From Stegostoma tigrinum (lineage: Eukaryota): DNA of 64,000 nucleotides. Each line of letters opens with the position of its first letter. The stretch's first letter is position 1. Position numbers and translations under genes: made by a program. The notes under the pieces were generated by a model. That model saw nothing but the letters and a program-made list of their open reading frames with translations. It was not told the origin of the DNA and ran no database searches. The stretch covers positions 9,621,565 through 9,685,564 of the forward strand of contig NC_081393.1 of NCBI RefSeq assembly GCF_030684315.1, written 5' to 3'. Shown piece after piece: positions 14,101-63,660 of the stretch.

Positions 14101-14700
14101 TAAGACTCATTGACAGGAAGTCTTCATGAGATGATTAAGTCTACCTTTCCATTCCAATTTTGCTGGTTTTGCATTAAATTCTCACCAGCTGGTCGGCTGG
14201 GATTTGAACTTTTGACCCGACAACACATGAGCTTGAGTCCCTAGAGAAATAGATCAGTGAATCGACCCCTTCTTCCACTCCCATGTTCACAGAATTCTCC
14301 ATTTTATCAACTGGAAATTATCTTGAGACAAAATTCAGTGCTCCCTCAAATACTTCGATTTATCATTCAAGCCAATACGGTACCCAACCAGATAGAGCAG
14401 GAACTTCCAGTATGAACTCAGCCAGTTTTTAGGCGAAGGCCATTAGTGTGATCTAAGCAGATGCAACATCCATAAGTACACAGAAATTGCACGTCAACAA
14501 CCTCATGCATGAACACCAAGATTCTGACATCATCCAAGCAGTTCAGGCCAATGCAGGTCAAACAAAGAGCAGCAAACACAGACTGAGCCTGGGACAGATC
14601 TCACCTGTGTAGCATTACACAGTGAACTCCGTCAACTTAAATACACAAATCTTCCTTCAAGCATTACCAATACAAATGGGAAAAAGATTACAATGAAGCC

Positions 14701-14783
14701 GAGATAACACAGTATAGAGCTGGACGAACACAGCAGGCCAAGCAGCGGAGGAGCAGGAAAGCCGACGTTTCAGGTCGAGATCC
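14701..14783 (-). mobile_element. Single arm of the PLE-derived family
   Basis: GAGATAACAC...GAACACAGCAGGCCAAGCAGC...GACGTTTCAGGTC matches the family arm. Confidence 0.75.
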
Positions 14784-14899
14784 GCCTGTGAGACAAAGAG
14801 CAAACAGCTATCCTTTCAGACTGCATGTTTACAAGATGCCCCGATTCAGAATGCAGCTCCAAAGTAAATTTGGAATTAAGTGCACATCATCATGGAACA

Positions 14900-15436: not shown

Positions 15437-16887
15437 GTACCTTTGATGCATCCTCTGTTGTAATCCTGCCTTTCAAAGCACAGCTGGCACTTCTTTTTCT
15501 TAAAATACAGTCTAGAGTAAATATTAGACTTAAACCATACTTTCTTTTGCAATACTCTGACCTCATCCCGACAGTACCAGCAACTACCAGAACTTGAGTA
15601 GTTCACTGTATACTTGAGAGAATTATTTACATTCCGTCATTCTACACCTGTGCCAATCAACTTATTCTATCAGTTTGGTCAAGAGTGAAAAATACATGGA
15701 TATTTAAAGCAACGTGAATAATGTCAGGACAATTTCTAATTTAAAGTTTCAGAAAAAAACTGGTTTTCACACATATGCTCTGGACCTCAGTACCCCATGA
15801 AAAAGAAGAATTTTGGTCATCTGACTCAAAATCACCATTTATGGCTCTGGTGTCAAATTCTATTTTTCTCAATACTTCTTTGTTCTGTATTTCATGACGC
15901 TACTTGTGTGACAGAATTATACCTTGCTGGTTCGATTCCTTCACTTAATTTAACCACCTGGACTCAGTCAAAGATGCCGCCTGAAAATATCAACATTTTG
16001 GCTTCAAATAACTCCTCTTTCAATTCCAAATCAATATTGTTGAATGTGATATCCTTGAGGCAGCCAAGATGTTCAGAGTTGGAAAATAAAGAGAACACAC
16101 CTAGTTGATTCATACAATTTTTCATTCAACCAGTCACCCTGGTTGAGCTTTAACAATCCAGTCCATCATACAATTGGCACAAGTCTTTGTGTAGCACAGA
16201 CATCAGTAAGGCCTCACTGAGAAGAGGAAGAAACCTCTTCAGTAAACAATTCCTTGAACAGCCAACGGGACACACAATTAGGAGGAAGCATGGAACACTC
16301 CTTTTGTAAAGTGTTATAATGGCGCGGATAATCTACTAAACAGCACACACAGTCTTTTAACAGCAGTGTTGCAGGCCAAGATATTCCCAGATACAGAATA
16401 AAAGATAACAAGATTGCTATGGATGGTGTGCCCCAGTAAAAACATTGCCATCCCACTTCCGAGTAGTCAGGTAGAAATGAAAGGCAGGTCGAGAACTGAG
16501 TATTTTAAAACGTCCTGAAATGGATCAGATTTGAAAGAAAAAAAGCCATCTTCTTCAAAGTCTCACACATTCAAAACTCTGATGTCTGCTGGGCCACAGC
16601 CATATGTGCTGCTCCTCCACAAAAGGACCACTCCTCTTATTTGAGCCCAGAAACCAATTCTAGGACATGATTCCATTGGAGGCATTCATGCAACTTTCCC
16701 CAAGTTTGTCTTCAGTCAGAATTTAAGCAAACGTGTCCAAAACAAGTCACTCAGTCATGAAGAGGAGCAAGAACCTTGACTGTGTTCAATCTCCCTTCCT
16801 CAACACAGGGTCAGAGATCATTTGCCGTATCTCAGAGTCAGCTAATCCATATATGGGCTTCCAACCAGACATGAAAACTAATTGTGA

Positions 16888-17134
16888 TCAGAGATAATGG
16901 GAACAGCAGATGCTGGAGAATCCAAGATAACAAAAGTGTGGAGCTGGAAGAACACAGCAGGCCAAGCAGCATCTTAGGAGCACTAAAGTTGACATTTCGG
17001 GCCTGGACCTTTCATCAGAAAAGGGGGATGGGGAGAGGATTCTGAAATAAATAGGGAGACAGGGGGAAGGCGGACCGAAGATGGATAGAGGAGAAGATAG
17101 GTGGAGAGGAGAGTATGAGTGGGGAGGTAGGGAG
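16888..17134 (-). mobile_element. Penelope-like element 3' end
   Basis: Collinear with 62097-62345. Minus-strand core CTGATGAAAGGTCCAGGCCCGAAATGTC at 16991-17018. Confidence 0.85.
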
Positions 17135-20133
17135 GTTGCTCCGGATCATGTCTACTGAAGTATTTTCCCAATAAACCATAAGTGACTCTTGGTTATGCAC
17201 TAAAATTTAAAAGTTTAAGCACAAACTGTTGCCATGGTGCAGTTACTCTTTTTAGAGGGTCTTATTTTAAATGCTAACTTCTAATCAAAGGTACAGGTAA
17301 CTGCAGTTTGAGTTTCAGGCAAGTGCTAGCAATGCACAGTCCCTGCCTCCTTAGAAACCATCAGGGCAACCTTACCTGGTGTACAGTGATATACTGGCAA
17401 GGTATAGATGGCTCTCTCCCAATGGTTATGCAGTGGCAAACTTCGGGCTCCATAAAGATTCAAACTGTGTTTAGTTATGCCAATTACATAACCCGAGGCC
17501 CGTGAAAGATCCCTGCATTCTTTGTAAACCAGGTCTGAAAGATTTTATTTTCACATTGTAGCATCAGAGTGAAGTGCTGAGAAGATCACCTCCAATCTAC
17601 TTCTTGTTACTTCAGTCTTGACTCAGGTCTTGTCATTAACTACCTCATCAGTTCAGAGTTGTTGCAAAACCATCATCATTCCAACTTTCAAGCTAACTAT
17701 CAACAGACTGACAATGTTAACTGCGGCCCTCTACATCGTCTGCCATACCAGGTATGTTTCGCCAGCACTGCTTGTATACCAGAATCTAATTTTTCTTTTA
17801 TTATTATGACTCAAACTGGTGGTGCCCCTACTGGTGAGGTAACATCACTACAGAACATTCAGTAATTCCACATTCCAAAAACAATGTTTCAGCACGACCT
17901 TTTCACAAAAATATCAGTCCAACTCTCAAAAGTTGCCAAATCTCAATTTTATTGCTGGATTATTACAAGATCTTGTAGGATATCTCAAACAGTTAAACAA
18001 ATCCAGTAACACATCAATTTCCAAATTCACTTTGGGCAGCAAATTTAATCTTTTCAGTATCATTCAAGTTTACTTGGCCTGTAAGAAATACTTCTTCTAA
18101 TGGCTGGTTTTGGGCACTATAAATTGTCACTAACATTTCATACAGAAACAAGAATTAATGAATTAAACCTTGGTACGTGGATTTATTTCGACTATCCAAC
18201 ATTAGATTCACTTTTCCAAAAAATTGGACGAAGTCCTAACATCATCTTAAACTGCAATCATCACCAAATCACTCATTAATCAGAAAAGCAAATTGAGGAG
18301 TTGCTTCAACTATTACCCAAAATTTGGAGGTACTGGTTTCAAGAAGTTTCTTTTTCCCTATAACACACTCGTGTATAACGCCTATCACTGCGACCCAAAA
18401 GACTGCATCTTCACAGTGGATAATGAAATGATAAATGTTAATAAAATATATGACAGCTAAAGCACACAACCTACTTAAAAAACAATAAGCTGTTGAATTG
18501 TTCTGAGAGGAAAAAATGATCAAGTGGACCACAAGGACCACTTGTATTTGAATGTTAATATGGACAGGCCAGAGATTAAAATATGCCAGTGTCCCATCAC
18601 ATAAACAGGTAGGATAGCAATGCCATGTGCACATCAATACATGTGAACTAAGAGCCATACTTCATTTATTAGAGACTGAATGTACAGGCACTAAAAGCTG
18701 GTGTAAGTACACTTCACCATTAACACTCTCACTTGATTCAGTCAGTCAGTTACACGCTGCCTCTAGGGTGTCCTCCATCCTATCATGTAAGTATGTGTTC
18801 CAGTGAGACGAAGATACTGTTAAAGATGTGACCTCGACTCAACCTGTCCTTTATCCTCACGTCTCACTTTGTCCTGCAAAGGTACCACACGGTCAAGCCA
18901 AGACAATATCTTCACCCAAAACACCAAAGGGCAAAAATCATCGGTATCCTTGCAGACATCATGTCTCAAGCCAGGAGGTCTCCCAATTTTAGAGGCCATC
19001 CAATGTGACATGTTTAAGAGAGCTCAATTCTAAAGGAATTTTTATTTCAAGGAATTTCACACACCCGACCCTATGGGCAGATTGGTTTCAATCTCAGCAC
19101 CAAGCTAATTTCTCAAATTTGTTTGTTTTGTACACACATTTGGTGGAGTTCAAATATTCACTCTTCCGATCATCACCAGGAATTCAGCCTGGCATCACAC
19201 AAAGCACCCTCCAACAAAACCCAACTTTAGCAACAAATATCATCGACAGGTCAAGGAATTATATAGTACAACTACACAAGTCAATGTTTTACAACAAATG
19301 GAATTACAGTACCTGCATACAGAAACACAATGCTCTATGTACTGTCCTGTCATTACGACCAACAGTTAATGCTGAAACACACAAGTTAGTCACCCAATAC
19401 ATCAGCTTGCAAATTCATCTGAAACCCTGTAATCAACCAAGAGAATCAAAAATATATGATCTCTTTGGAAGCCTCTTCTTTTATTTGGCCTAGCATCTGC
19501 AGCAAAAAGCACAAAATCTGCCACTTCTAAATGATCTGAATGCCAATACTTAGGTTCATTCAACGTGTGCAAAAGGCAAACTTGGGGGAGCAGTGACTAT
19601 CTATCAAGCAAGAAGTAATTTGATTAGCACAGTAAACATTTCAGTTAAAACCTGCTTTACTTCAATTCAACTTCAACTGAAGCCAGACTGTGTTGCTGAT
19701 CAGTCAAATATGAAGTGTAAAATCACAAACTATTGGAAAGTGGGTATGTTTTATGCTAGATTAAAATCTAACAACATCGATGATATAAATCTGATTCATG
19801 AACTTCCTCCCACCTTTGATGAACACATCCCACCTTATAAATACATACAAGAACAGACACATTTAAGGGGAACATCCTGCAATCCCATTCATTCCCAAAT
19901 AATTCCTGTCATGCATCAGCTGAACCTTCCAAACCATTTGCTACCATCAGGGAACTGCAGACAGAAAAATCCACCAGCAAAACTGACACTTGGTTGACTG
20001 TTCCAACATAACATCCATACAAAAAGTGCAGACAGCAACAAAAGCCAGGGATTTCCGGGAGGTGGGGGGGGAGGGGGTGCAGCAGCAAAGAGATAATAAC
20101 TTCAGGAAATATAAATATTTTGCTTTGTTTTAC

Positions 20134-20211
20134 CTTCTGCAACATCATCATCTATAGCTCCTTTCACCTGAGAGAAACACCACTGAATGTCATTGCCACC
20201 ACTTCCAACTC
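20134..20211 (-). CDS. PPP2R2A: PP2A regulatory subunit B55-alpha, coding exon 2 (G-VGSGGNDIQWCFSQVKGAIDDDVAE)
   Basis: ttcatttag|GA...GAAG|gtaaaa, 78 nt, phase 1/1. Peptide matches the B55 N-terminus. NDIQW and DDDVAE plus adjacency to EBF2 favour PPP2R2A over PPP2R2D. Exon 3 (ADIISTVEF...) was not found in 1-20133. Confidence 0.93.
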
Positions 20212-21989: not shown

Positions 21990-23560
21990 GCACAGTGACA
22001 GGATCAGACCAAGTCAGCATGGATTTGTGAAGGAGAAATCATGCTTGACAAATATATGTTGAAATTCTATGAAGATGTAACCAGTACAGTTGACAAGGGG
22101 GAGCCAATCGATGTAGTATATTTGGACTTTCAGAAAGCGTTTGACAAAGTCCCACATAAGAGAACAATGTGCAAGATTAAAGTGCATGGGATTAGGGAAA
22201 GTGTATTGAGACGGACAGGAAATTGGGTGGGAGACAAGAAACAATTAGATGGAATTAATGATGAGATAACAAGGCGCGGAGCTGGATGAACACAACAGAC
22301 GAAGCAGCATCCGGAGAGCAGTAAGGCTGACGTATTGGGCCTAGACCCTTCTTCCTGTCTAGGGTCTCCGCCCAAAACGTCAGCCTTCCTGCTCCTCTGA
22401 TGCTGCTTGGCCTGCTGTGTTCATTCAACTCCGCACCTTGTTAACTCAGACTCTACAGCAACTGCAATTCCTACGATCTCTGAAACAGGAGGAACGAACT
22501 GGTCCTTTTCAAATTAGCAGGCAGTAACAAGTGGGGTACTGCAGGGATCAGTGCAGCAACCCCAGCTATTCACAATATATACTAATTATTTGGATGAGGA
22601 AACAAAATACATCTCTAAGTTTGCAGATGATACCAAGTCAGGTGGCAGGATGAACTGTGACAAGGATGCAGAGATCCCTCAGCATGATCTCGACAGGTTG
22701 GATGAGTGGGCAAATCAATGGCAAATGCAGTATAATTCGGATAAAGTCAGGTTATTCACTTTGGAAGCAAAAACAAGAAGGCAGATTACTACCTGAATGG
22801 CTGTAAGTTAGGAGAGAGGGGAGTGTGCAACCAGACCTGGGCATCCTTGTGCACCAGTTGCTGAAGGTCAGCATGCAGGTACAGCAGGCTGTAAAGAAGG
22901 CAAATGGTATGTTGGCCTTCATTATGAGGGGTTTCGAGTACAGGAGCAGGGATGTGCTGTAGCAGTTATACAGGGCTTTGGTGAGACCACACCTGGAATA
23001 TTGTACACAGTTTTGGTCTCCTTTTCTGAGGAAGGATCCTCTTGCTTTTGAGAGAGTGCAGCGAAGGTTTACTGGGCTGATTCTGGGGATGGTGGGTCTG
23101 GTCTATGGGCAGAGATTGACCTGGTTAGGATTGTTTTCGCCGGAGTTCAGACAACTGAGAGTCGGGTTGGGGGTGAGATCTCATTGAGACTTAGAAAATT
23201 CTAACAGGACTGAACAGGGTAGACGCAGGGAGGATTTTCCCCATGCTGGGCGTGTCGGGAACTGAGGTCACTGTATGAGGATTTGGGGTAGACCATTTAG
23301 GATGGAGCTGAGGAGATATTTCTTCACCCAAACAGTGGTCAGCCTATGAAATTCATTACAACAGGAAGTAGTTAATGCTAAAACATTGAATATATTCAAC
23401 AGGCTATGAGACACAGCACTTCGAGCGAATGGGATTAAAGGGTAAGGGGAGAAAGTGGGATTAGGCTTTGAGGTGGACGATCAATCGTGATCACGAACAG
23501 CAGAGCAGGCTCAAAAGAACCAAATGGCCTCCTCCTGCTCCTATCTTCCATGTTTCTATT
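21990..23560 (+). mobile_element. CR1/HER1-type LINE, RT region to 3' end
   Basis: VDKGEPIDVVYLDFQKAFDKVPH, ISKFADDTK and VRPHLEYCTQFWSP motifs, followed by a 3' tail. Confidence 0.92.
22263..22482. mobile_element. Fold-back PLE-derived short element inserted in a CR1 LINE
   Basis: GAGATAACAAGG...CCTTGTTAACTC inverted arms with the tail on the right. It interrupts the CR1 RT frame. Confidence 0.82.
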
Positions 23561-30120: not shown

Positions 30121-30218
30121 ATTCTGATGAATGAACACAGGACTCTAAACATCAACTCTGTTTTACTCTCAACAGATGCTGCCAAACCTGCTGAGTTTCT
30201 CCAGCACTTCGTTTTTAA
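30121..30218 (+). mobile_element. Older, second PLE-type terminal fragment
   Basis: CTGATGA...AAACATCAACTCTG...CAGATGCTGCCAAACCTGCTGAGTTTCTCCAGCA. A reverse-complement relative lies at 63910-64000. Confidence 0.55.
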
Positions 30219-42584: not shown

Positions 42585-43125
42585 GGGAGGTGATGTCCTA
42601 GAGTATTATCACTGAACTGTTAATCGAGAGACCCAAATAGTGTTCTGGGGAAGTAGGAACTGCAGATGCTGGAGAATCTGAGATAACAAGGTGTAGAGCT
42701 GGATGAACACAGCAGGCCAAGCAGCATCAGAGGAGCAGGAAAGCTGACGTTTCAGGCCTTGACCCGAAAGGTCCGAAACATCAGCTTTCCTGTTCCTCTG
42801 GTCCTGCTTGGCCTGCTGTGTTCATCCAGCTCTGCATCTTGTTATCTCTAATATTCTGGGGACCTGGATTTGAATCCCACCATGGCAGATGGTGGAATTT
42901 GAATTCAACTTCCAAAAAGTTCTGCAATTAAGAATCTAATGATGAGTATAAAACTATTGTTGACTGTTGGAAAATCCCCTTTAGGGAAAGAAGCTGCCAT
43001 CTTTACCTGGTCTGGCCTACATATGATCGCAGACCACAGCTGTTGACTCTCAACTGTTCTCTGGGCAATTAGGGGTAGACAATAAATACTAACAACACCC
43101 TCATCCAGTGAATGAATAAACAAAA
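42585..43125 (+). mobile_element. tRNA-derived SINE (second family), interrupted by the fold-back element
   Basis: Shares GAATCCCACCATGGCAG, TTTAGGGAA.GAA, ACCTGGTCTGGCCTACAT and a GCAATTAGGG...CAATAAAT tail with copies at ~2110-2470, ~33365-33715 and (minus) ~40150-40440. Confidence 0.7.
42652..42848. mobile_element. Fold-back PLE-derived short element inserted in a SINE
   Basis: Arms 42680-42759 and 42769-42848 are inverted; the tail is on the left only. TSD TA(G/A)T(G/A)TTCTGGGGA at 42638-42651 and 42849-42862. Confidence 0.85.
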
Positions 43126-48505: not shown

Positions 48506-48522
48506 CTTTTTAGGCAGCTGTG

Positions 48523-48732
48523 ATAATGGGAACTGCAGATGCTGGAGAATCCAAGATAACAAAGTGTAGAGCTGGATGAACACAGCAGGTCCAGCAGCAT
48601 CTCAGGAGCACAAAAGCTGACATTTCGGGCCTAGGCCCTTCTCTGATGAAGGGTCTAGGCCCGAAACGTCAGCTTTTGTGCTCCTGAGATGCTGCTTGGC
48701 CTGCTGTGTTCATCCAGCACTACACTTTGTTA
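48523..48732. mobile_element. Fold-back (palindromic) PLE-derived short element with intact hammerhead-like core
   Basis: Arms ~48554-48641 and ~48648-48735 are reverse complements. TSD TCTTTTTAGGCAGCT(G/A)TG at 48505-48522 and 48733-48750. Confidence 0.88.
48643..48670 (+). ncRNA. Minimal hammerhead ribozyme-like motif
   Basis: CUGAUGA-A-GGGU(CUAG)GCCC-GAAA-CGUC: conserved core boxes, 4-bp stem II, loopless palindromic stem III (ACGU) and a GUC cleavage triplet. Stem I is only ~2 bp, so activity is unproven. Confidence 0.6.
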
Positions 48733-51700
48733 TCTTTTTAGGCAGCTATGTAGTTCTATTTGTTCCTTAAAGATCTCATACAAGCACGATGGGCGAGATG
48801 GTGATCTGTGCCTGAATACTCCACATCTCAAAAGAGAAGTTATCAGGATTCTCAACACTGATCGCAACAGTGATAAGTACTTTAAAGCTACTGGCCATAA
48901 ATGCTTTGGGATATCCCAAGGTAGTGTAAGAAGTTGGAAAACTGCAAGTCTCTTTTCACGTTTGGCTGCAGATTGCACGTGTGAGCCCCAGAATTGAAAG
49001 CCAACGAATTCTCGCAATATCGGAACAGCACTTGGCAGCTCCCGAATCTATTAGCTGAGGGCAACACGGCGCGAAGCATCATTTGGAAAACGAGGAGGGA
49101 TGATACCCTTGGAAAAAATACCATTGAATAAAAAGACGCAGATCTCGACCACAGCGTGGCGCTCTTCATCCTCAGTAAGTGCGCTGTTCTTTTTCAAACG
49201 CCTCCTGTGGGTTTCGGGAGGTGCAACATCTGCTAAACAAAGAAGCCCAGACGCGAGTTGACATTGATTTGAGGGGAGAGTTAACCCATGGTGTAATATT
49301 GCCTGCAAAAGCGCCAGAAAAAGTCAATGAAGTGCAAGCACGAATTAGAGTGGCGCTAAATCACCGGACATTAGAGTCCTGAGTTTAGAAAACTCCACAT
49401 GCTGCCTGAGCTGCAGGTGTGTATCTCGATGTAAAAATTTGTTAATGTATGAGCCAGTCTCCTGTGTTTTTTTTCTGGCTATTAATTCATGTATCATCTT
49501 TGTTCAGGAAATGTTCGCGATGCTACAGTGTTAGAAATTCAACGTCAATCATCTTTGATTTCATCATTAAAGCAGGAGACGGGGCGGTAAATCCGAGCCC
49601 TGTCTGATGTTACTAATTTGTGATAGTTTTGCTGTTAAACTTGTTTGATTATGGCTGGCGCAAATATTGAAAATCAACCCGAGTTGGGGGTGTGGGAGTG
49701 TTGTTTGACGTTGGTGGGGTGGAGAGGGTGGTGGAAGTGGGAGGGAGAATGGAATTGACACAGACTTTGGGAAGAGGGAAATGCAAAAGGTATATGAAAA
49801 GGTGCTTCAATAAATGTGTGTGATGTCGATTACACGAACCGTAACACAATAAGTCTTGATTCCAAGCCGAGTATCCTGTGAGGCAGAATAATCAGAACAA
49901 AGTTGGTTGAAATCACGGCAGGAAAATAAACAAGACATTCCAGCCCCTTTTAAAAATCGTAAGCGGGAAGTAAATGCCTTTTATTTGAACAAAATAAAGA
50001 CACGACCTAAAATTATTAGCAGGTAATTCATGGTATTGGGATTTTTTTTTCTGTCTGCATTTTTGCCGTCTCTATCATTATGGATAATGAGGAAGGGGTG
50101 ATAAATGTCGGGGCGGGGGCGAGAAGGCCAGGTCGTTTTGCGAACTTTGAATCTCCCATATCCAACAAAAAGTAGCGTGTATTTTCCCGAATAATTACCG
50201 GATAAATAAATACTTCATTGACAGATTCAATGAGTTCAAAAACTGTGTGTGAGGAAACTTCGCCCCGGGCTGTGACAGAATCTTATCAAGGACAGCAAGG
50301 GGTCCAATTATCCCTCGCAGTTTTAATATTCAGAGTTTCTTATGGGATATAAACTGCTGCCTGCTAATTGTCAGAGTGCATGTAAATACATGATGATTAT
50401 TAAGGGGGAATGATTCAATCAATCTGTTTATCTACACCACCACCGCCTCCTCCCATCCCACCGCCTACCGTCTGCTCAACGTGTGTATGTGTAAAACCCG
50501 AAGTAAGGTCCTTGATTCCAGCTAAAAACGTGCATTTTATGTGTCTTCTGACCTGGGGCAAAATAAAAATCATCAGACCAACACTTCATCACTGAAGGTT
50601 AGGGAACCAAAAGTACCACAAAATGAGTGTAAAAGCCGAGATCAGGCGGACTGCAGCAAGCATTTTGAATTCGTAGATTCTTGGTGATTCTGCGTATGAC
50701 TGCGAAGCCCTCGCGATTCAGAATGTACTTCGTTCTTCCTCTTGATTTAAAAAACACCTTGCAGAACCGACTTCACTAAAGTATCTGGAAATTTTGAAAG
50801 TGGCCAGGATGGGCTGACACGAGAAACGATACCGACTAAGTACAAGTTAATACAGAAAAATTCAGGTCAGAGCGATCAGCCATTGTATGTCCTTCTGATT
50901 TTCGCGGCGTTTTATTGTTTGGGAGCAGAGAGTAGAGTGGGATTAGGGAACAAAAGCGATCTGGATTTGGTAAATCCATCAATAAGAGAAAAAGAAACTA
51001 AAACTCTGAATGGAATTGTCATACGTTGACCGGGGGCGCTGCGCGGTGTATGTCCCCATGTCAGTTGTTAAATTATAGTAATGTTAATTGATATTACACG
51101 AAAAATCTCAAACTACTGTCAAACGGGACACGGTACTGTATAAACTTGTATCTGTTTAATCTATTTAATGGTCTGTGTATTTGGTGTACACTCTGATGTA
51201 TGTAAGGTTTCTTTTCCTCAATGCTGAATAAGAGTTTCCATCTGATAGATTTCATTACTGCATCATCCCTTTTAACAAGCTACGCGATACTTCCTTTAAT
51301 CCCTGGTTCATCATGTGCCACCTCTGCTCTGCCGTTTATCCGTACAGCTATCAAACATGCTATCGTGTGAAACCCTTGATCATCATACGATACACTAATT
51401 GACGAAACTGACCAAAGCAGCAGGCTCTGGACACCAAAAGGCGAAGCGGGGAAGACGCGAGATCAAACCTCGACTCGCAAACAAAACTGAGTTTTCGAAG
51501 TCTGTAGATTTCAGATTTAAAAATGAAAAGAGACGGGGAGGAAACAGCGCAAGAGACTTAACAACATATTTGACCTATCTAAAAAACGTACATACATATA
51601 TAAAATATGCGCATATATGACATTGAGATTGACCATACAGACATATTGTGGAAAACAGTGTAGTAATCTTCTCACTTTCAAAGGACAATACAAGATATTT

Positions 51701-53724: not shown

Positions 53725-53863
53725 AAATCAATACAGCGTGGAACTGGAGGAGCACAGCAGGTCAGGCAGCATCAGAAGGGCAGGAGAGTTGACGTTTCGG
53801 GTTGGCACCCTTCATCTGTCCTAAATAACTCGAACTCCAGTGTCCGCAGTTCTTGCTGTCTCC
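53725..53863. mobile_element. Diverged PLE-derived short element (inverted arm plus tail)
   Basis: Minus-strand arm with GATGAAGGGTGCCAACCCGAAACGTC followed by a plus-strand tail. Perfect TSD AAAAGTTGATTC at 53713-53724 and 53864-53875. Confidence 0.78.
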
Positions 53864-58011: not shown

Positions 58012-58362
<351 letters not shown>

Positions 58363-59451
58363 TAAACAGCGGGCTATTTCACCGGCTGTCTAAATATTTT
58401 TGTGTATGTCCCTTACTAAACAAACCACCTGCACATTCCAGGTTTGAGCGCTCAACAACAAATTTCTTGAGCCCGAGTTAAATCAAAATACTTGCGTCCA
58501 ATAAATGGCTTTTCTTAAGTGTTAAATCTTTGAGAACATAGCCTTGTTGCCTCAAATACCAACTGTGGTCAAAAGAATGATGGAGCCGCTTGCCAAGGAG
58601 TGTTCAATGATAGAACGGAATCGAAGTTTAAAACCAGGAATTCACTCAGAGTTTCTGACTGTGCTCCACCACACCTTTGCTTCACAGGCTGCATTTTACA
58701 TGTTTTCGATCAGTTTTCAGATCACAGAATCTGATCATACCGTGGAGCGAGAATGCTAGGGCTGGGAATATAGCCGGTTCGGGGAGGCTCGGCTCCTAGG
58801 CGTTTTACACCACTCCAAATTGACTTTAATATGTTGGGCCCACGGCGAGAGTTGGCAGTGGACGTCCAGCTGGACATTTTTTTAACGCTAAAATCTTTTA
58901 CCTGAAGGCGTCAACCGAAAGCAAACAGGCAACGTGGGGTTTTGCGTCTTGAAACTGTGAAAGAATTTGTCACTTGTCAGAGAGCATAATCTACTGAAAT
59001 TGGGGCGGAAAAGAAGTTTTAATTTTCAACCTTGGGCATTAGGTGTGCATATATTGGGTTAAATGGGCCAAACTCTGTCCTGTGATTCACAATTGCAGAG
59101 TATTTTCACCAACTTTAGCGGATAACCGCCGCTGCTCATCCTGGTCAGTTTAGCGTCTGTTTAAAGCCCATTTAAAAGGATGACAATTTCCGATTAATAC
59201 CATCACTCACCAGCTTCGCCAGAATTTGAAATGCTTTATGTTGATTCCCAGGGTCCCGGCTTTTCCACGGAGGAGATGGTGATGGTCATGTGTTGTTGCA
59301 CTCAATGGTTTAGACTCAGTCGACTTTCGGTCTTTAATCTTGCAAGTGCTGCCCATTGATTATCCTTGCAACTGAGACAACGGTTTCCGTTCAAAACATG
59401 ACAGACCAAGGAGGGATGAATATCTAAGTAACGTTAAATCTATTTTTTCAG

Positions 59452-59515
59452 GAACCGGGAAACGATAAAACTAACAACGGGACACATTACAAGCTGCAGC
59501 TACTCTACAGCAATG
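59452..59515 (+). CDS. EBF2: EBF2 coding exon 3 ([22 protein letters not shown])
   Basis: ttttttcag|GAA...AATG|gtaagt, 64 nt. [15 protein letters not shown] is EBF2-type. Confidence 0.96.
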
Positions 59516-60087
59516 GTAAGTCAGCCCCGAAAATCATGCGATCGGCCAGCGCAATCTGTCCCTTTAAAATATCTGGGGTAACTGCTTGAATTTGCGCTGA
59601 ATTGCTTCCAACGCAATTCTGAGGGCGACCGGTAAAGAGCGAACTGAAGAAAATGAAACAATCCGGTTAAGCGCGGGCTGCAGCTCCCAGAAATTGCACA
59701 GCTTGTTAACATAAGTTATTTCAAAACATACAACTCAAATTATTTCTAACTCTGTCCAATCATTCAGTTGAATGTACATTTAGTGTCACTGCAGCGATTG
59801 GCCGAGCGAAATTTAAATTCGTTCAAAACCGACTTACTCGCACATAGTTAAAATCGATTCCAACTTTGCGTGGACAGGGAAGTTTTCGAAATGCTAACAA
59901 CCATTCGTCCATTAATAAAACAAATGGCGGGAGGTCCCCTTTGCTTCACGTGCACAGATTGAAAGAGATTACAATTTCCTTACAACACAGAGCGCCTGAG
60001 AAACGGACTGCAAAAAAAATCAGGGGCACTCGTCAATCTATCAGAATAACTCTTTCTTAGCACGGTATATTCAAAACTATATAACAT

Positions 60088-60771
60088 TGTGGCTTCCTCT
60101 ACATTGGGGAAACCAAGCGGAGGCTTGGGGACCGCTTTGCAGAATACCCACACTCGGTTCGCAATAAACAACTGCACCTCCCAGTCGCGAACCATTTTAA
60201 CTCGCCCTCCCATTCTTTAGAAGACATGTCCATCATGGGCCTCCTGCAGTGCCACAATGATGCCACCCGAAGGTTGCAGGAACAGCAACTCATATTCCGC
60301 TTGGGAACCCTGCAGCCCAATGGTATCAATGTGGACTTCACCAGCTTCAAAATCTCCCCTTCCCCCACTGCATCCCAAAACCAGCCCAGTTCTTCCCCTC
60401 CCCCCACTGCATCACAAAACCAGCCCAGCTCGTCCCTGCCTCCTTAACCTGTTCTTCCTCTCACCTATCCCCTCCTCCCACCTCAAGCTGCACCTCCATC
60501 TCCTACCTACTAACCTCATCCCCCCTCCTTGACCTGTCTGTCCTCCCCGGACTGACCTATCCCCTCCCTACCTCCCCACCTGTACTCTCCTCTCCACCTA
60601 TCTTCTTTTCTCTCCATCTTCGGTCCGCCTCCCCCTCTCTCCCTATTTATTCCAGAACCCTCTCCCCTATCCCCCTCTCTGATGAAGGGTCTAGGCCCGA
60701 AGCATCAGCCTTTGTGCTCCTGAGATGCTGCTTGGCCTGCTGTGTTCATCCAGCTCCACACTTTGCTATCT
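60088..60771 (+). mobile_element. Penelope-like retroelement, 5'-truncated: GIY-YIG endonuclease C-terminus plus 3' UTR / pseudo-LTR
   Basis: Frame 60088-60447 reads CGFLYIGETKRRLGDRFAEY...PVANHFNSPSH...RRLQEQQLIFRLGTLQPNGINVD, typical of PLE GIY-YIG. Followed by a C/T-rich UTR and a hammerhead-like core at 60679-60706. Confidence 0.88.
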
Positions 60772-61206
60772 GTGATAAATAACAATGCTTGTTTCAGCCA
60801 TCTTTTTTTTCCAACGAAGACTCTATCTCGTAAGTTAGACAAAGGACAGCCAGTGGACATGACCTATGTAGATTTCTAAAAGACCTTTCACAAGGTGCCA
60901 CAAAGACGGCTGTGAAATAAGATAAGAGCCTATGGTGATAAAAACCAAAAGAACCTATGATGCCCAGGGTAAGACACAGATATGGATGGAGGACTGGCTG
61001 ACTGGCAGAAGGCAGGCAGTTGGGATAAAGGGATCTTTTTTCAGGATAGCAGCCAGTGACCAATGGAATTCCTCAGGGGTCAGTGTTGGGATCACAATTT
61101 TCATATTAAAGATTTGGAGAGGGAACTGAGGGCATTGTTGCTAAACCTGCAGATAGGTGGAGGAATAGGGAGTACTGAGTGTGCAGGAGGGTATGGAAAG
61201 ATTTGG

Positions 61207-61377
61207 TTCAGAGATAGTAGGAACTGCCGATGCTGGAGAATCTGAGATAACAAGGTGTAGAGCTGGATGAACACAGCAGGGCCACGCAGCATCAGAAGAG
61301 CAGGAAACGTCAGCCTTCCTGCTCCTCTGAAGCTGCTTGGCCTCCTGTGTTCATCCAGCTCTACGCCTTTGTATCTC
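61207..61377. mobile_element. Fold-back PLE-derived short element inserted in a CR1 LINE
   Basis: Inverted arms meet at GGAAACGTC. TSD T(A/G)TGGAAAGA(T/C)TTGG at 61192-61206 and 61378-61392. Confidence 0.85.
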
Positions 61378-62096
61378 TGTGGAAAGACTTGGACAGGCTA
61401 GGAGAGTAAGTAAAATAGTGGGAGAGGGAATACATGTGGGAAAGTGTGAGGTCATGTGAGAAGAATACAGGCAAAGACTATTTTCTAAATGGGAAAAGGC
61501 TTTGCAAATCTGAAGCACGAAGGGGCTTGGGAGTCCTCATTCAGGATTGTCTGAAAGTTAACATGCAAGTTCAATTGGCAGTTAGAAGGCAAATGCGGTG
61601 TTGGCATTCATTTTGAGAGAGCCAGAATACAACGCCAGGGATGTACTGCTGAAGCTGTATAAGGCTCAGAACAGACTGCATTTTGAATATTGAGAGCACT
61701 TTTGGGACCGGTCTCTAAGAAAGGATGTGCTGGCCCCAGGAAGGAGCCCAGAGGAGGTTCACAAGAATGATCTCAAAAATGTAGAGGAGTTTGTTGTGTT
61801 AGGAATGTTTGAGGACTAGTTCTGTACTTGATGAGTTTAGAAGGATGGTGGGGAGGGGATGGAAGGCCTGGATAGAGTGCACATGGAGAAGATGTTGCCA
61901 CTAATGGGAAAGACTGAGATGCCTCAGTGTGACAGGATAATCCTTTTGAACTGAGATAAGGAGGAATTTCTTCAGCCAGAAGGTGGTAACTCTGTAGAAT
62001 TCATTGCTGCAGTTGGCTGTGGGATACAGACAGGTAGGTTCTTGGTTAATAAAGAAATCAAAGGATACTGAGAGAAAGCAGAATGGGGTTGAGAAA

Positions 62097-62778
62097 GAGA
62101 GATAATGGGAACTGCAGATGCTGGAGAATTCCAAGTTAATAAAATGTGAGGCTGGATGAACACAGCAGGCCAAGCAGCATCTCAGGAGCACAAAGGCTGA
62201 TGCTTTGGGCCTAGACCCTTCATCAGAGAGGGGGATAGGGGAGAGGGTTCTGGAATAAATAGGGAGAGAGGGGGAGGCGGACCGAAGGTGGAGAGAAAAG
62301 AAGATAGGTGGAGAGGAGAGTACAGGTGGGGAGGTAGGGAGGGGATAGGTCAGTCCGGGGAGGACAGACAGGTCAAGGAGGGGGGATGAGGTTAGTAGGT
62401 AGGAGATGGAGGTGCAGCTTGAGGTGGGAGGAGGGGATAGGTGAGAGGAAGAACAGGTTAAGGAGGCAGGGACGAGCTGGGCTGGTTTTGTGATGCAGTG
62501 GGGGGAGGGGAAGAACTGGGCTGGTTTTGGGATGCAGTGGGGGAAGGGGAGATTTTGAAGCTGGTGAAGTCCACATTGATACCATTGGGCTGCAGGGTTC
62601 CCAAGCGGAATATGAGTTGCTGTTCCTGCAACCTTCGGGTGGCATCATTGTGCCACATTGTGGCACCTCTCCCCTATCCCCCTCTCTGATGAAGGGTCTA
62701 GGCCCGAAGCATCAGCCTTTGTGCTCCTGAGATGCTGCTTGGCCTGCTGTGTTCATCCAGCCTCACATTTTATTATCT
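62097..62778 (-). mobile_element. Penelope-like retroelement with inverted terminal segment and perfect 13-bp TSD
   Basis: 62097-62652 is the minus-strand 3' end including the tail; 62667-62778 is an inverted copy of the terminal repeat. Flanked by TGGGGTTGAGAAA at 62084-62096 and 62779-62791. Inserted in a CR1 3' end. Confidence 0.9.
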
Positions 62779-62944
62779 TGGGGTTGAGAAACCATGGTCG
62801 AAGGGGTGAACAGACTTGATGGGCTGAATGGCCTGATTCTGCTCCAATATCTTATGGTCTTATGGTGTCATTTTAAATTAGTTCATCCGTTTGAAAAATC
62901 ATTTTTTTCTCAATTATTAGCTTGAGGTCTTGCATTAGAAACTG

Positions 62945-63210
62945 CACGGCATAGGAAATGCACAATCTGGTAATTTCGTCTCTAAGAGGGCAGTGTATCT
63001 ATGGAATTCTTCATTATTAGAGGGCTGTGGAGGCTGGATTATTAAGGACAGTGAAGCCCAAATTTTAGACAAACTTTGAACCAGTCAGGAAATCAAGAGT
63101 AAAAAGGTGAAAATCAAGGCCGAGAGAGTTACAAAGTGGAGTTGAGGATTATCGGATCAACCGTAATCTCATTGACTCGATGGGGTGAACGGCCTACTTC
63201 TGGTCCTCCA
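62945..63210 (+). mobile_element. CR1-type LINE 3' fragment
   Basis: Degenerate ...TATGGAATTCT...AGAGGGCTGTGGAGGCT...GGGTGAACGGCCTACTTCTG tail. Confidence 0.6.
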
Positions 63211-63492
63211 GCCACTGACTACAGCGGGCAGCATCATTGAACAAACGAGTAACACAAGGAGTGGTGATTTTATGGAGCTCTGGCTCACGCAAACATTGAT
63301 CATGGTCGTGGAAAAGAAAATGGCGGTTAAACCACTGGCGGTTTCTCGAGATAAGGTTGAACTCTCTGCGATTATCCGCTACAATGAACACATAGGAGTG
63401 ATAACACTGCAACCTGTTTTCTGGCTTGTTAATTGTAAATGCATTAAGAAAAGCATAAGTTTTCTTGTTGCTGACTTGTTGCTTTTGCACAG

Positions 63493-63548
63493 GTATGCGG
63501 ACTGAACAAGACCTGTACGTACGACTCATCGATTCAGTGACCAAGCAG
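63493..63548 (+). CDS. EBF2: EBF2 coding exon 4 (G-MRTEQDLYVRLIDSVTKQ)
   Basis: ttttgcacag|GT...CAG|gtacag, 56 nt. LIDSVTKQ is EBF2-type. The gene continues beyond the window. Confidence 0.96.
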
Positions 63549-63660
63549 GTACAGAAATTGTTTGCCCTTTCCCCAATATCATCAATGACAAACAGCATTG
63601 CAGAAAACCCGCCAAATTCTTCCGAGATCACTGTTCTGAAAGCAACTTGAATGAAGGTGA

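Follow-up and report, generated by a model that had tools for sequence, protein, structure and literature searches.

A minimal hammerhead motif in the pLTR of an abundant, young shark Penelope-like element, and an excess of insertion ends at its predicted cut

The hammerhead motif between PPP2R2A and EBF

The window, by which we mean the whole 64,000-nucleotide stretch of Stegostoma tigrinum DNA analyzed here, contains exons of two genes, both of which were confirmed: PPP2R2A on the minus strand (exon at ~20129-20206) and EBF on the plus strand (exons at 58087-58260, ~59490 and ~63490). The exon positions place the motif at 48643-48670 between the two genes, i.e. in intergenic DNA. PPP2R2A and EBF (58087-63550) face away from each other and lie ~37 kb apart, an arrangement that presumably corresponds to the human EBF2-PPP2R2A order.

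Direct reading of the window at 48643-48670 (plus strand) returned exactly the letters described in the first-pass annotation. They comprise CUGAUGA, an extra A, a 4-bp stem II with a 4-nt loop, GAAA, a loopless palindromic stem III and the triplet GUC, and were classified as a minimal type-I hammerhead with descriptor features taken from PMC4209133. The CUGANGA and GAAA boxes are present together with an NUH triplet, and stem II has at least 4 bp, is closed by G10.1-C11.1 and is preceded by an extra base after A9. At the level of sequence, the motif has the features of the minimal hammerheads of Penelope-like elements (PLEs), its short stem I being the least certain of them. The stem III palindrome can form a 4-bp self-duplex (-3.1 kcal/mol by folding), in agreement with its description as a loopless, dimer-type hammerhead, and the cut is predicted between 48670 and 48671, where the annotation had placed it.

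Two weaknesses of the motif that had been suspected from the sequence were borne out. Stem I is only 2 bp long (48641-48642 with 48671-48672) and was never populated in the folding of young-family RNA. In free RNA a competing CUGAUG/CGUCAG hairpin (-11.4 kcal/mol) is predicted to be preferred over the hammerhead (-3.6 kcal/mol) by ~8 kcal/mol, with pair probabilities of 0.7-1.0 for an RNA starting at -4 (the C of the core is numbered 0, which places the predicted cut at +28). The proposed check with hammerhead models gave a divided result: with the full minimal-hammerhead descriptor, evenly spaced genome stretches adding up to 400 kb contained 21 matches and none of 10 Markov-resampled controls contained any, but an Rfam scan of the window yielded no hammerhead family match at E≤1. 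The loose pattern alone matched 4 times in the window against 1.96 expected, which does not exceed chance. Matches to Rfam mir-607, MIR528 and mir-1949 were rejected; they represent fold-back hairpins and score below the gathering thresholds.

The motif lies in a fold-back insertion (48520-48733) that the earlier reading overlooked. The insertion is flanked by a 14-bp target-site duplication, the same 14 bases occurring at 48506-48519 and 48734-48747. Its left arm (48520-48641, minus strand) is a PLE 3' end with a long tail reaching ~+124/+127; it is 5'-truncated at +5, so that five bases are missing from the start of the core. The right arm (48640-48733, plus strand) is a PLE 3' end running from -3 to ~+91, with a short tail, and matches the 3' end of ORF-intact copies at every base. 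Two bases at the junction are common to both arms. The 48643 copy therefore belongs to a head-to-head insertion, of which it forms one arm and which has a single whole core; it differs in this from animal non-LTR retrozymes, which consist of tandem units each with a whole hammerhead. Folded as RNA, the insertion is predicted to form a hairpin of -168.6 kcal/mol in which the probability of stem II is 0.000; burial of the core in this way is predicted to leave the 48643 copy incapable of cutting. Immediately to the right of the insertion, the region 49051-49382 is GC-richer and contains short open frames with no Pfam match; it is possibly an exon or a conserved element.

Tail matches were found 15 times at ~10 places in the window, and 48643 is the only site with a whole core. 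The five other cores named in the first-pass annotation are homologous to it, but all of them carry changes in the core or in the pairs that close it. A 5'-truncated copy at 16884-17135 (minus strand, i.e. the PPP2R2A coding strand, 3' of the exon at ~20130) carries G10.1>A and C15.2>T in its core at 16991, and an old copy at 53730-53818 (minus strand) has U4>A in its core at 53791 and a U-A pair in stem II. The remaining three are located in EBF introns: a truncated copy at 60085-60775 (plus strand) containing the end of a GIY-YIG ORF (60085-60447, whose peptide was matched by eye to the C-terminus of a full-length ORF at locus L047) and a core at 60679, and a head-to-head pair at 62098-62781 with cores at 62199-62226 (minus) and 62686-62713 (plus). 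The cores at 60679 and 62686 carry A15.1>G and no longer have the stem-III palindrome, and that at 62199 carries G12>A with A15.1>G. The genes in whose introns ribozyme motifs had been placed, EBF2 and PPP2R2A, were confirmed as EBF and PPP2R2A, but the named EBF-intron cores (60679, 62199 and 62686) are damaged and 48643 itself is intergenic. Older copies without a whole core comprise a tail-only copy at 14695-14786 (minus strand) and fold-back insertions at 22262-22487 and 42652-42849; a further older fold-back, at 61204-61379 in an EBF intron, is joined within the core.

The three nearby copies within 60085-60775 and 62098-62781 have private core changes in common (A15.1>G, and a stem-III palindrome no longer present); the segments 60249-60764 and 62141-62656 are 98.8% identical. 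These shared changes may reflect local duplication, gene conversion, or a mobile source copy with a broken hammerhead.

The parent element and its genome-wide population

Longer copies of the family carry an ORF with reverse transcriptase (RT) and GIY-YIG motifs upstream of the hammerhead. At all 20 of the 20 long-ORF loci fetched, the ORF is followed at a distance of 140-230 bp by the motif, in most cases as the identical 30-mer, which upholds the proposed Penelope origin of the family. L047 is a partial tandem with a 3,660-bp unit, in which an ORF of 1,101 aa starts just after the upstream hammerhead and tail. DKG, YIDD, a CX4CxxC linker and GIY-YIG were read directly from this ORF; its Pfam matches (RVT_1, E 4.8e-5; GIY-YIG, E 0.004) are both under the curated cut-offs. 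A single ORF with RT, C-terminal GIY-YIG and DKG, partial tandem and inverted copies, a one-sided tail and a target-site duplication are the features of EN+ PLEs, and the hammerhead is located in the pLTR, as in other PLEs. The linker joining RT to EN is of the CX2-5CxxC type, which marks Neptune and Nematis (PMC8557442); this suggests a Neptune-type element, by a feature that Nematis shares. Both Neptune and Poseidon are present in vertebrates (Li et al. 2026, bioRxiv 10.64898/2026.07.22.740005). The inverted arms within single insertions are often >99% alike, and the family is therefore young.

Two further features of the element were observed. A GC-rich minisatellite in the N-terminal part of the ORF shows in-frame expansion (L055 5922-8307, in a 1,630-aa frame; L047 4923-5091). 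The pLTR contains a possible 3' splice site (L047 3915-4020; window ~60540-60657), in which a motif resembling a branch point and a long pyrimidine tract are accompanied by a conserved AG located ~24 nt ahead of the core; we take this feature to resemble that of D. virilis Penelope.

The suggestion of a very large genome-wide motif population was confirmed. Genome-wide, 90,316 exact copies of the 30-mer were counted (45,079 + 45,237; control 0), ~10x the largest published dispersed count compared (~4,000 in coelacanth and ~9,000 in X. tropicalis). When variation was allowed at position 7, in loop II and at one stem base, the 3.2-Gb genome gave 115,072 copies, and the reversed-pattern controls none. 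Evenly spaced stretches totaling 1 Mb contained 53 descriptor-perfect minimal hammerheads, belonging to three families, and 195 homologous tails, which extrapolate to ~170,000 motifs and ~620,000 tails per genome.

The two additional families also follow GIY-YIG frames. An older sister family has a 5-bp stem II, a stem I of at least 4 bp (up to 4-7 bp) and a GUU triplet (L107 9803, L138 2232, L109 4370; window 30123-30214), and is the better candidate for in vitro cleavage. The third family is an unrelated PLE, presumably Poseidon-like, whose hammerhead has a 6-bp stem II and a 3-bp stem I (L137 8475-8510, L104, L083, L149). Across the three families the core letters are constant, and the families differ at position 7, in loop II and in both stem II and stem I; the compared sequences were picked with the descriptor, so this comparison is partly circular. 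Position 7 and loop II vary also in copies chosen without reference to the core. Between lineages, position 7, loop II, one stem-II pair and one stem-I pair change, and the boxes stay.

Variation within the family was analyzed in 46 copies selected by flank and tail only (37 young, 9 older). The extra conservation of the core over its flanks that had been sought as a test of function was absent within inserted copies: 5/368 core changes vs 63/2,404 flank changes (p 0.20) and 3/90 vs 16/531 (p 0.75), both comparisons being of low power. This is as expected of dead insertions. The whole core was retained in 22/37 young and 4/9 older copies. The second pair of stem I is C-G in 26 and U-G in 11 of the 37 young copies. 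Pairing differences in stem II, put forward earlier as covariation, do exist: position +16 is G in 36/37 young copies, and G in four and A in five of the nine older ones. However, the step from U-G to U-A is a one-sided subfamily difference. C at +11 was found in 0/37 young copies and 1/9 older copies, so the C-G pair of the left arm at 48520-48641 is most likely a private change. Stem-II covariation was consequently rejected as evidence.

Close tandem partners are uncommon, which counts against the cleavage proposed below: pairs within 400 bp of each other were head-to-head in 34 cases and tandem in four. In a set of 47 head-to-head pairs, which includes loci chosen for ends at the cut, 46 combine one long with one short tail and 37 have a target duplication of at least 8 bp. 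Short fold-backs with exact 15-base arms number 13,666 genome-wide (12,222 + 1,444). Small retrozyme-like tandem arrays of the pLTR were also noted (L136 5041-5686, 301-bp unit; L050 6519-6877, 181-bp unit), as was a truncated copy directly joined to telomere-type repeats (G000:C10:102614179).

5' ends of the copies

The positions at which truncated copies begin fall into two main groups. Among 86 young copies in the 1 Mb, the 5' end lies within -10 to +10 in 34 and at +28 in three, and no copy ends in the interval from -26 to -8. Genome-wide, 6,319 matches end at -4. The base preceding these ends is G in 85/100 of the matches listed and in 17/28 of those with unique flanks, where 27% is expected (p 1.5e-4; the weights assume independent flanks). 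This G may be an untemplated base from copying of the cap, and a start at -4 would presumably fit a TCT-type initiator. The pile-up at -4 is likely to mark a capped RNA start.

The second group is located at the predicted cut. In the young family 3,043 matches end at +28, compared with 319 at +27, 293 at +29 and 338 at +30; the neighboring counts were obtained under a slightly stricter filter (passed by 20/24 comparable rows), and with this difference considered the overall excess is ~7-9-fold. When only unique non-element flanks were counted, +28 was represented by 394 ± 84 ends vs 146, 162 and 230, an excess of ~2-fold. End classes were sorted by eye among the matches listed, and the p values given for them treat flanks as independent. 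About 63/100 of those at +28 are symmetric joins, which could also be made by 2-4-base microhomology, and head-to-tail restarts account for 8/100 at +28 (by eye) vs 4, 3 and ~1 at adjacent positions. Symmetric fold-backs centered on the cut were found at 28 of 50 loci listed, compared with one and 6-7 at two adjacent 4-base palindromes.

The excess at the predicted cut recurs in three PLE lineages. In an older subfamily without a palindrome at the cut, 26/73 of the listed ends in the range +26 to +31 are at +28 (p 2.5e-4), and 16/47 after removal of microhomology rows (p 0.006); this count leaves out ~27 rows ending at +25 or earlier. In the third family, with its different hammerhead, 23/59 of the listed ends in the 6-base range are at its own cut (p 1.3e-4), or 20/56 with three arm pairs merged (p 0.001), after omission of 41 rows that were outside the range, ambiguous, or had an intact upstream core. 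Five of the third-family ends are blunt symmetric mirror joins exactly at the cut, without native microhomology. The excess of truncated copies beginning at the predicted cut is indirect evidence that the motif occasionally cuts in living cells, and hammerhead cleavage in vivo is likely for the family.

The most serious alternative, which we consider doubtful, is that the hammerhead of this lineage is fossil or nearly inert, and that the +28 excess arises from RT pausing at RNA structure combined with microhomology-guided joining. The 2-bp stem I and the dominant competing hairpin are in line with it, as are the absence of core conservation within copies, the symmetric or microhomology joins that make up most young-family +28 ends, and the somewhat raised count at +30, the base of the hairpin (230 vs ~150 with unique flanks). 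However, the predicted hairpin base lies two bases past the cut in the young family and three bases past it in the third family (2/4 folds). Both families nonetheless peak at the cut itself, an argument against a simple stall of RT that does not exclude it. Moreover, the peak persists where there is no palindrome (older subfamily, third family), and adjacent palindromes of equal length are far less used.

Improbable, in our judgment, is a reading of the short fold-backs as a self-spreading, non-autonomous family (retrozyme- or MITE-like) descended from a few founders, in which case the peaks would count descent and not separate events. The sheer number of fold-backs with exact 15-base arms and the small tandem arrays at L136 and L050, as known for animal retrozymes, would accord with such spread, but the junctions differ from locus to locus, and the cut-centered fold-backs have different subfamily tails, each with its own target duplication and one-sided tail. 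A role in host RNA, by which the dispersed motifs would cut introns or transcripts (in the window, near EBF2 and PPP2R2A) and be retained for doing so, is very improbable: many of the ~170,000 motifs extrapolated from 53 in 1 Mb must be intronic, but the 48643 copy lies between genes with its core buried (stem II probability 0.000), the named intronic cores are damaged, and the core is not conserved over its flanks.

Proposed mechanism and relation to known systems

We regard as probable an explanation in which a minimal hammerhead in the pLTR of a young, abundant PLE cuts a small share of the parent RNA, the 48643 fold-back itself being predicted to be inert. The element RNA would start, capped, 4 nt before the core, and reverse transcription would have two start sites within the tail, at ~+91 and ~+127. 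A cDNA would be primed by each of the two nicked target strands, and the two cDNAs would join head to head. Most short cDNAs would reach the capped start of uncut RNA, and a few per cent would stop at the end generated by self-cleavage. Because free RNA is predicted to misfold, cleavage would require two hammerheads paired via the palindromic stem III, and probably an element protein too. Inserted copies would decay neutrally, and selection on the core would act in source elements only. More speculatively, RNA cut at the upstream hammerhead would lose its cap, and a cut at the downstream hammerhead would separate the ORF from the RT start sites; in that case, cleavage would limit or shape copying and not be required for it.

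The motif class, the element class and the shape of the insertions are already in print, and the motif itself and the 48643 copy are ordinary. As in the minimal hammerheads described in PMC4209133, the motif is of type I, with an extra base between 9 and 10.1, a G10.1-C11.1 pair, a palindromic 15.2-16.2 segment and no loop III, and is found mostly in single truncated copies, with several families per genome. At 4 and 2 bp, respectively, stems II and I of the shark motif are shorter than those of Schistosoma PLE hammerheads (7-8 bp and 4-5 bp); a 2-bp helix I has been described for D. virilis. No shark is named in the sections consulted of PMC4209133 or in its supplement file 2, and supplement file 1 may cover sharks.

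The Anolis element Poseidon PAc (Frangieh et al. 2024, PMC11167929) is similar: its tandem copies carry a hammerhead where the pLTR meets the ORF, its tail is defined by two 3' ends, and both target strands serve for priming. According to that study there are two RT start sites, both strands are nicked and extended, the RNA is cut only with protein, and uncut RNA is the main template; this anole mechanism agrees with the explanation proposed for the shark element, including the help required for cleavage. The shark element differs in its Neptune-type linker and in a long ORF that begins ~130 nt after the core. In addition, no RNA-seq ends at the cut were reported in PMC11167929 for PAc, whereas the shark genomic copies show an excess there. 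Eight of nine Xenopus dimers are reported not to cleave in vitro, which, like the missing anole ends, speaks against cleavage. The idea of dimer- or protein-aided cleavage is based on PMC11167929 and on a review (PMC6765202), which reports the dimer cleavage of Lunse et al.

Head-to-head inverted truncated copies, with a 30-40 bp tail at one end and a target duplication, are known from the inverted pLTR insertions of EN+ PLEs (Arkhipova et al. 2013, PMC3846280; Craig et al. 2021, PMC8557442). In the shark, unlike in these descriptions, both arms are reduced to hammerhead and tail, and there are >13,000 such stumps with exact arms. The animal non-LTR retrozymes of Li et al. 2026 (bioRxiv 10.64898/2026.07.22.740005) likewise have PLE-derived type-I hammerheads, a small number of tandem arrays occurring in the shark too, and PLE-derived hammerhead arrays are reported there from the one chondrichthyan sampled; the 48643 copy, in contrast, is an inverted pair and not a tandem array. 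Our search of largely open-access literature, PMC6155905 included, found no paper linking hammerheads to shark PLEs, giving such shark counts, or describing truncation ends at the cut, although the supplements of Li et al. 2026 may cover sharks. The in vivo cutting and the purpose of animal Penelope minimal hammerheads are stated as open in the sections consulted of PMC4209133, PMC8557442 and PMC11167929.

With ~10^5 near-identical copies and young intact ORFs, RNA ends of the shark element can be read from insertion ends. We lean, by a small margin, towards viewing shark genomes as a fossil record of germ-line hammerhead cleavage, in which thousands of Penelope insertions would derive from cut RNA and their 5' ends would mark both the cut and the capped start; if so, the cleavage share of each family could be read from DNA alone. 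The element also offers a second clade (Neptune-type) for an in vitro assay so far performed only on a Poseidon element.
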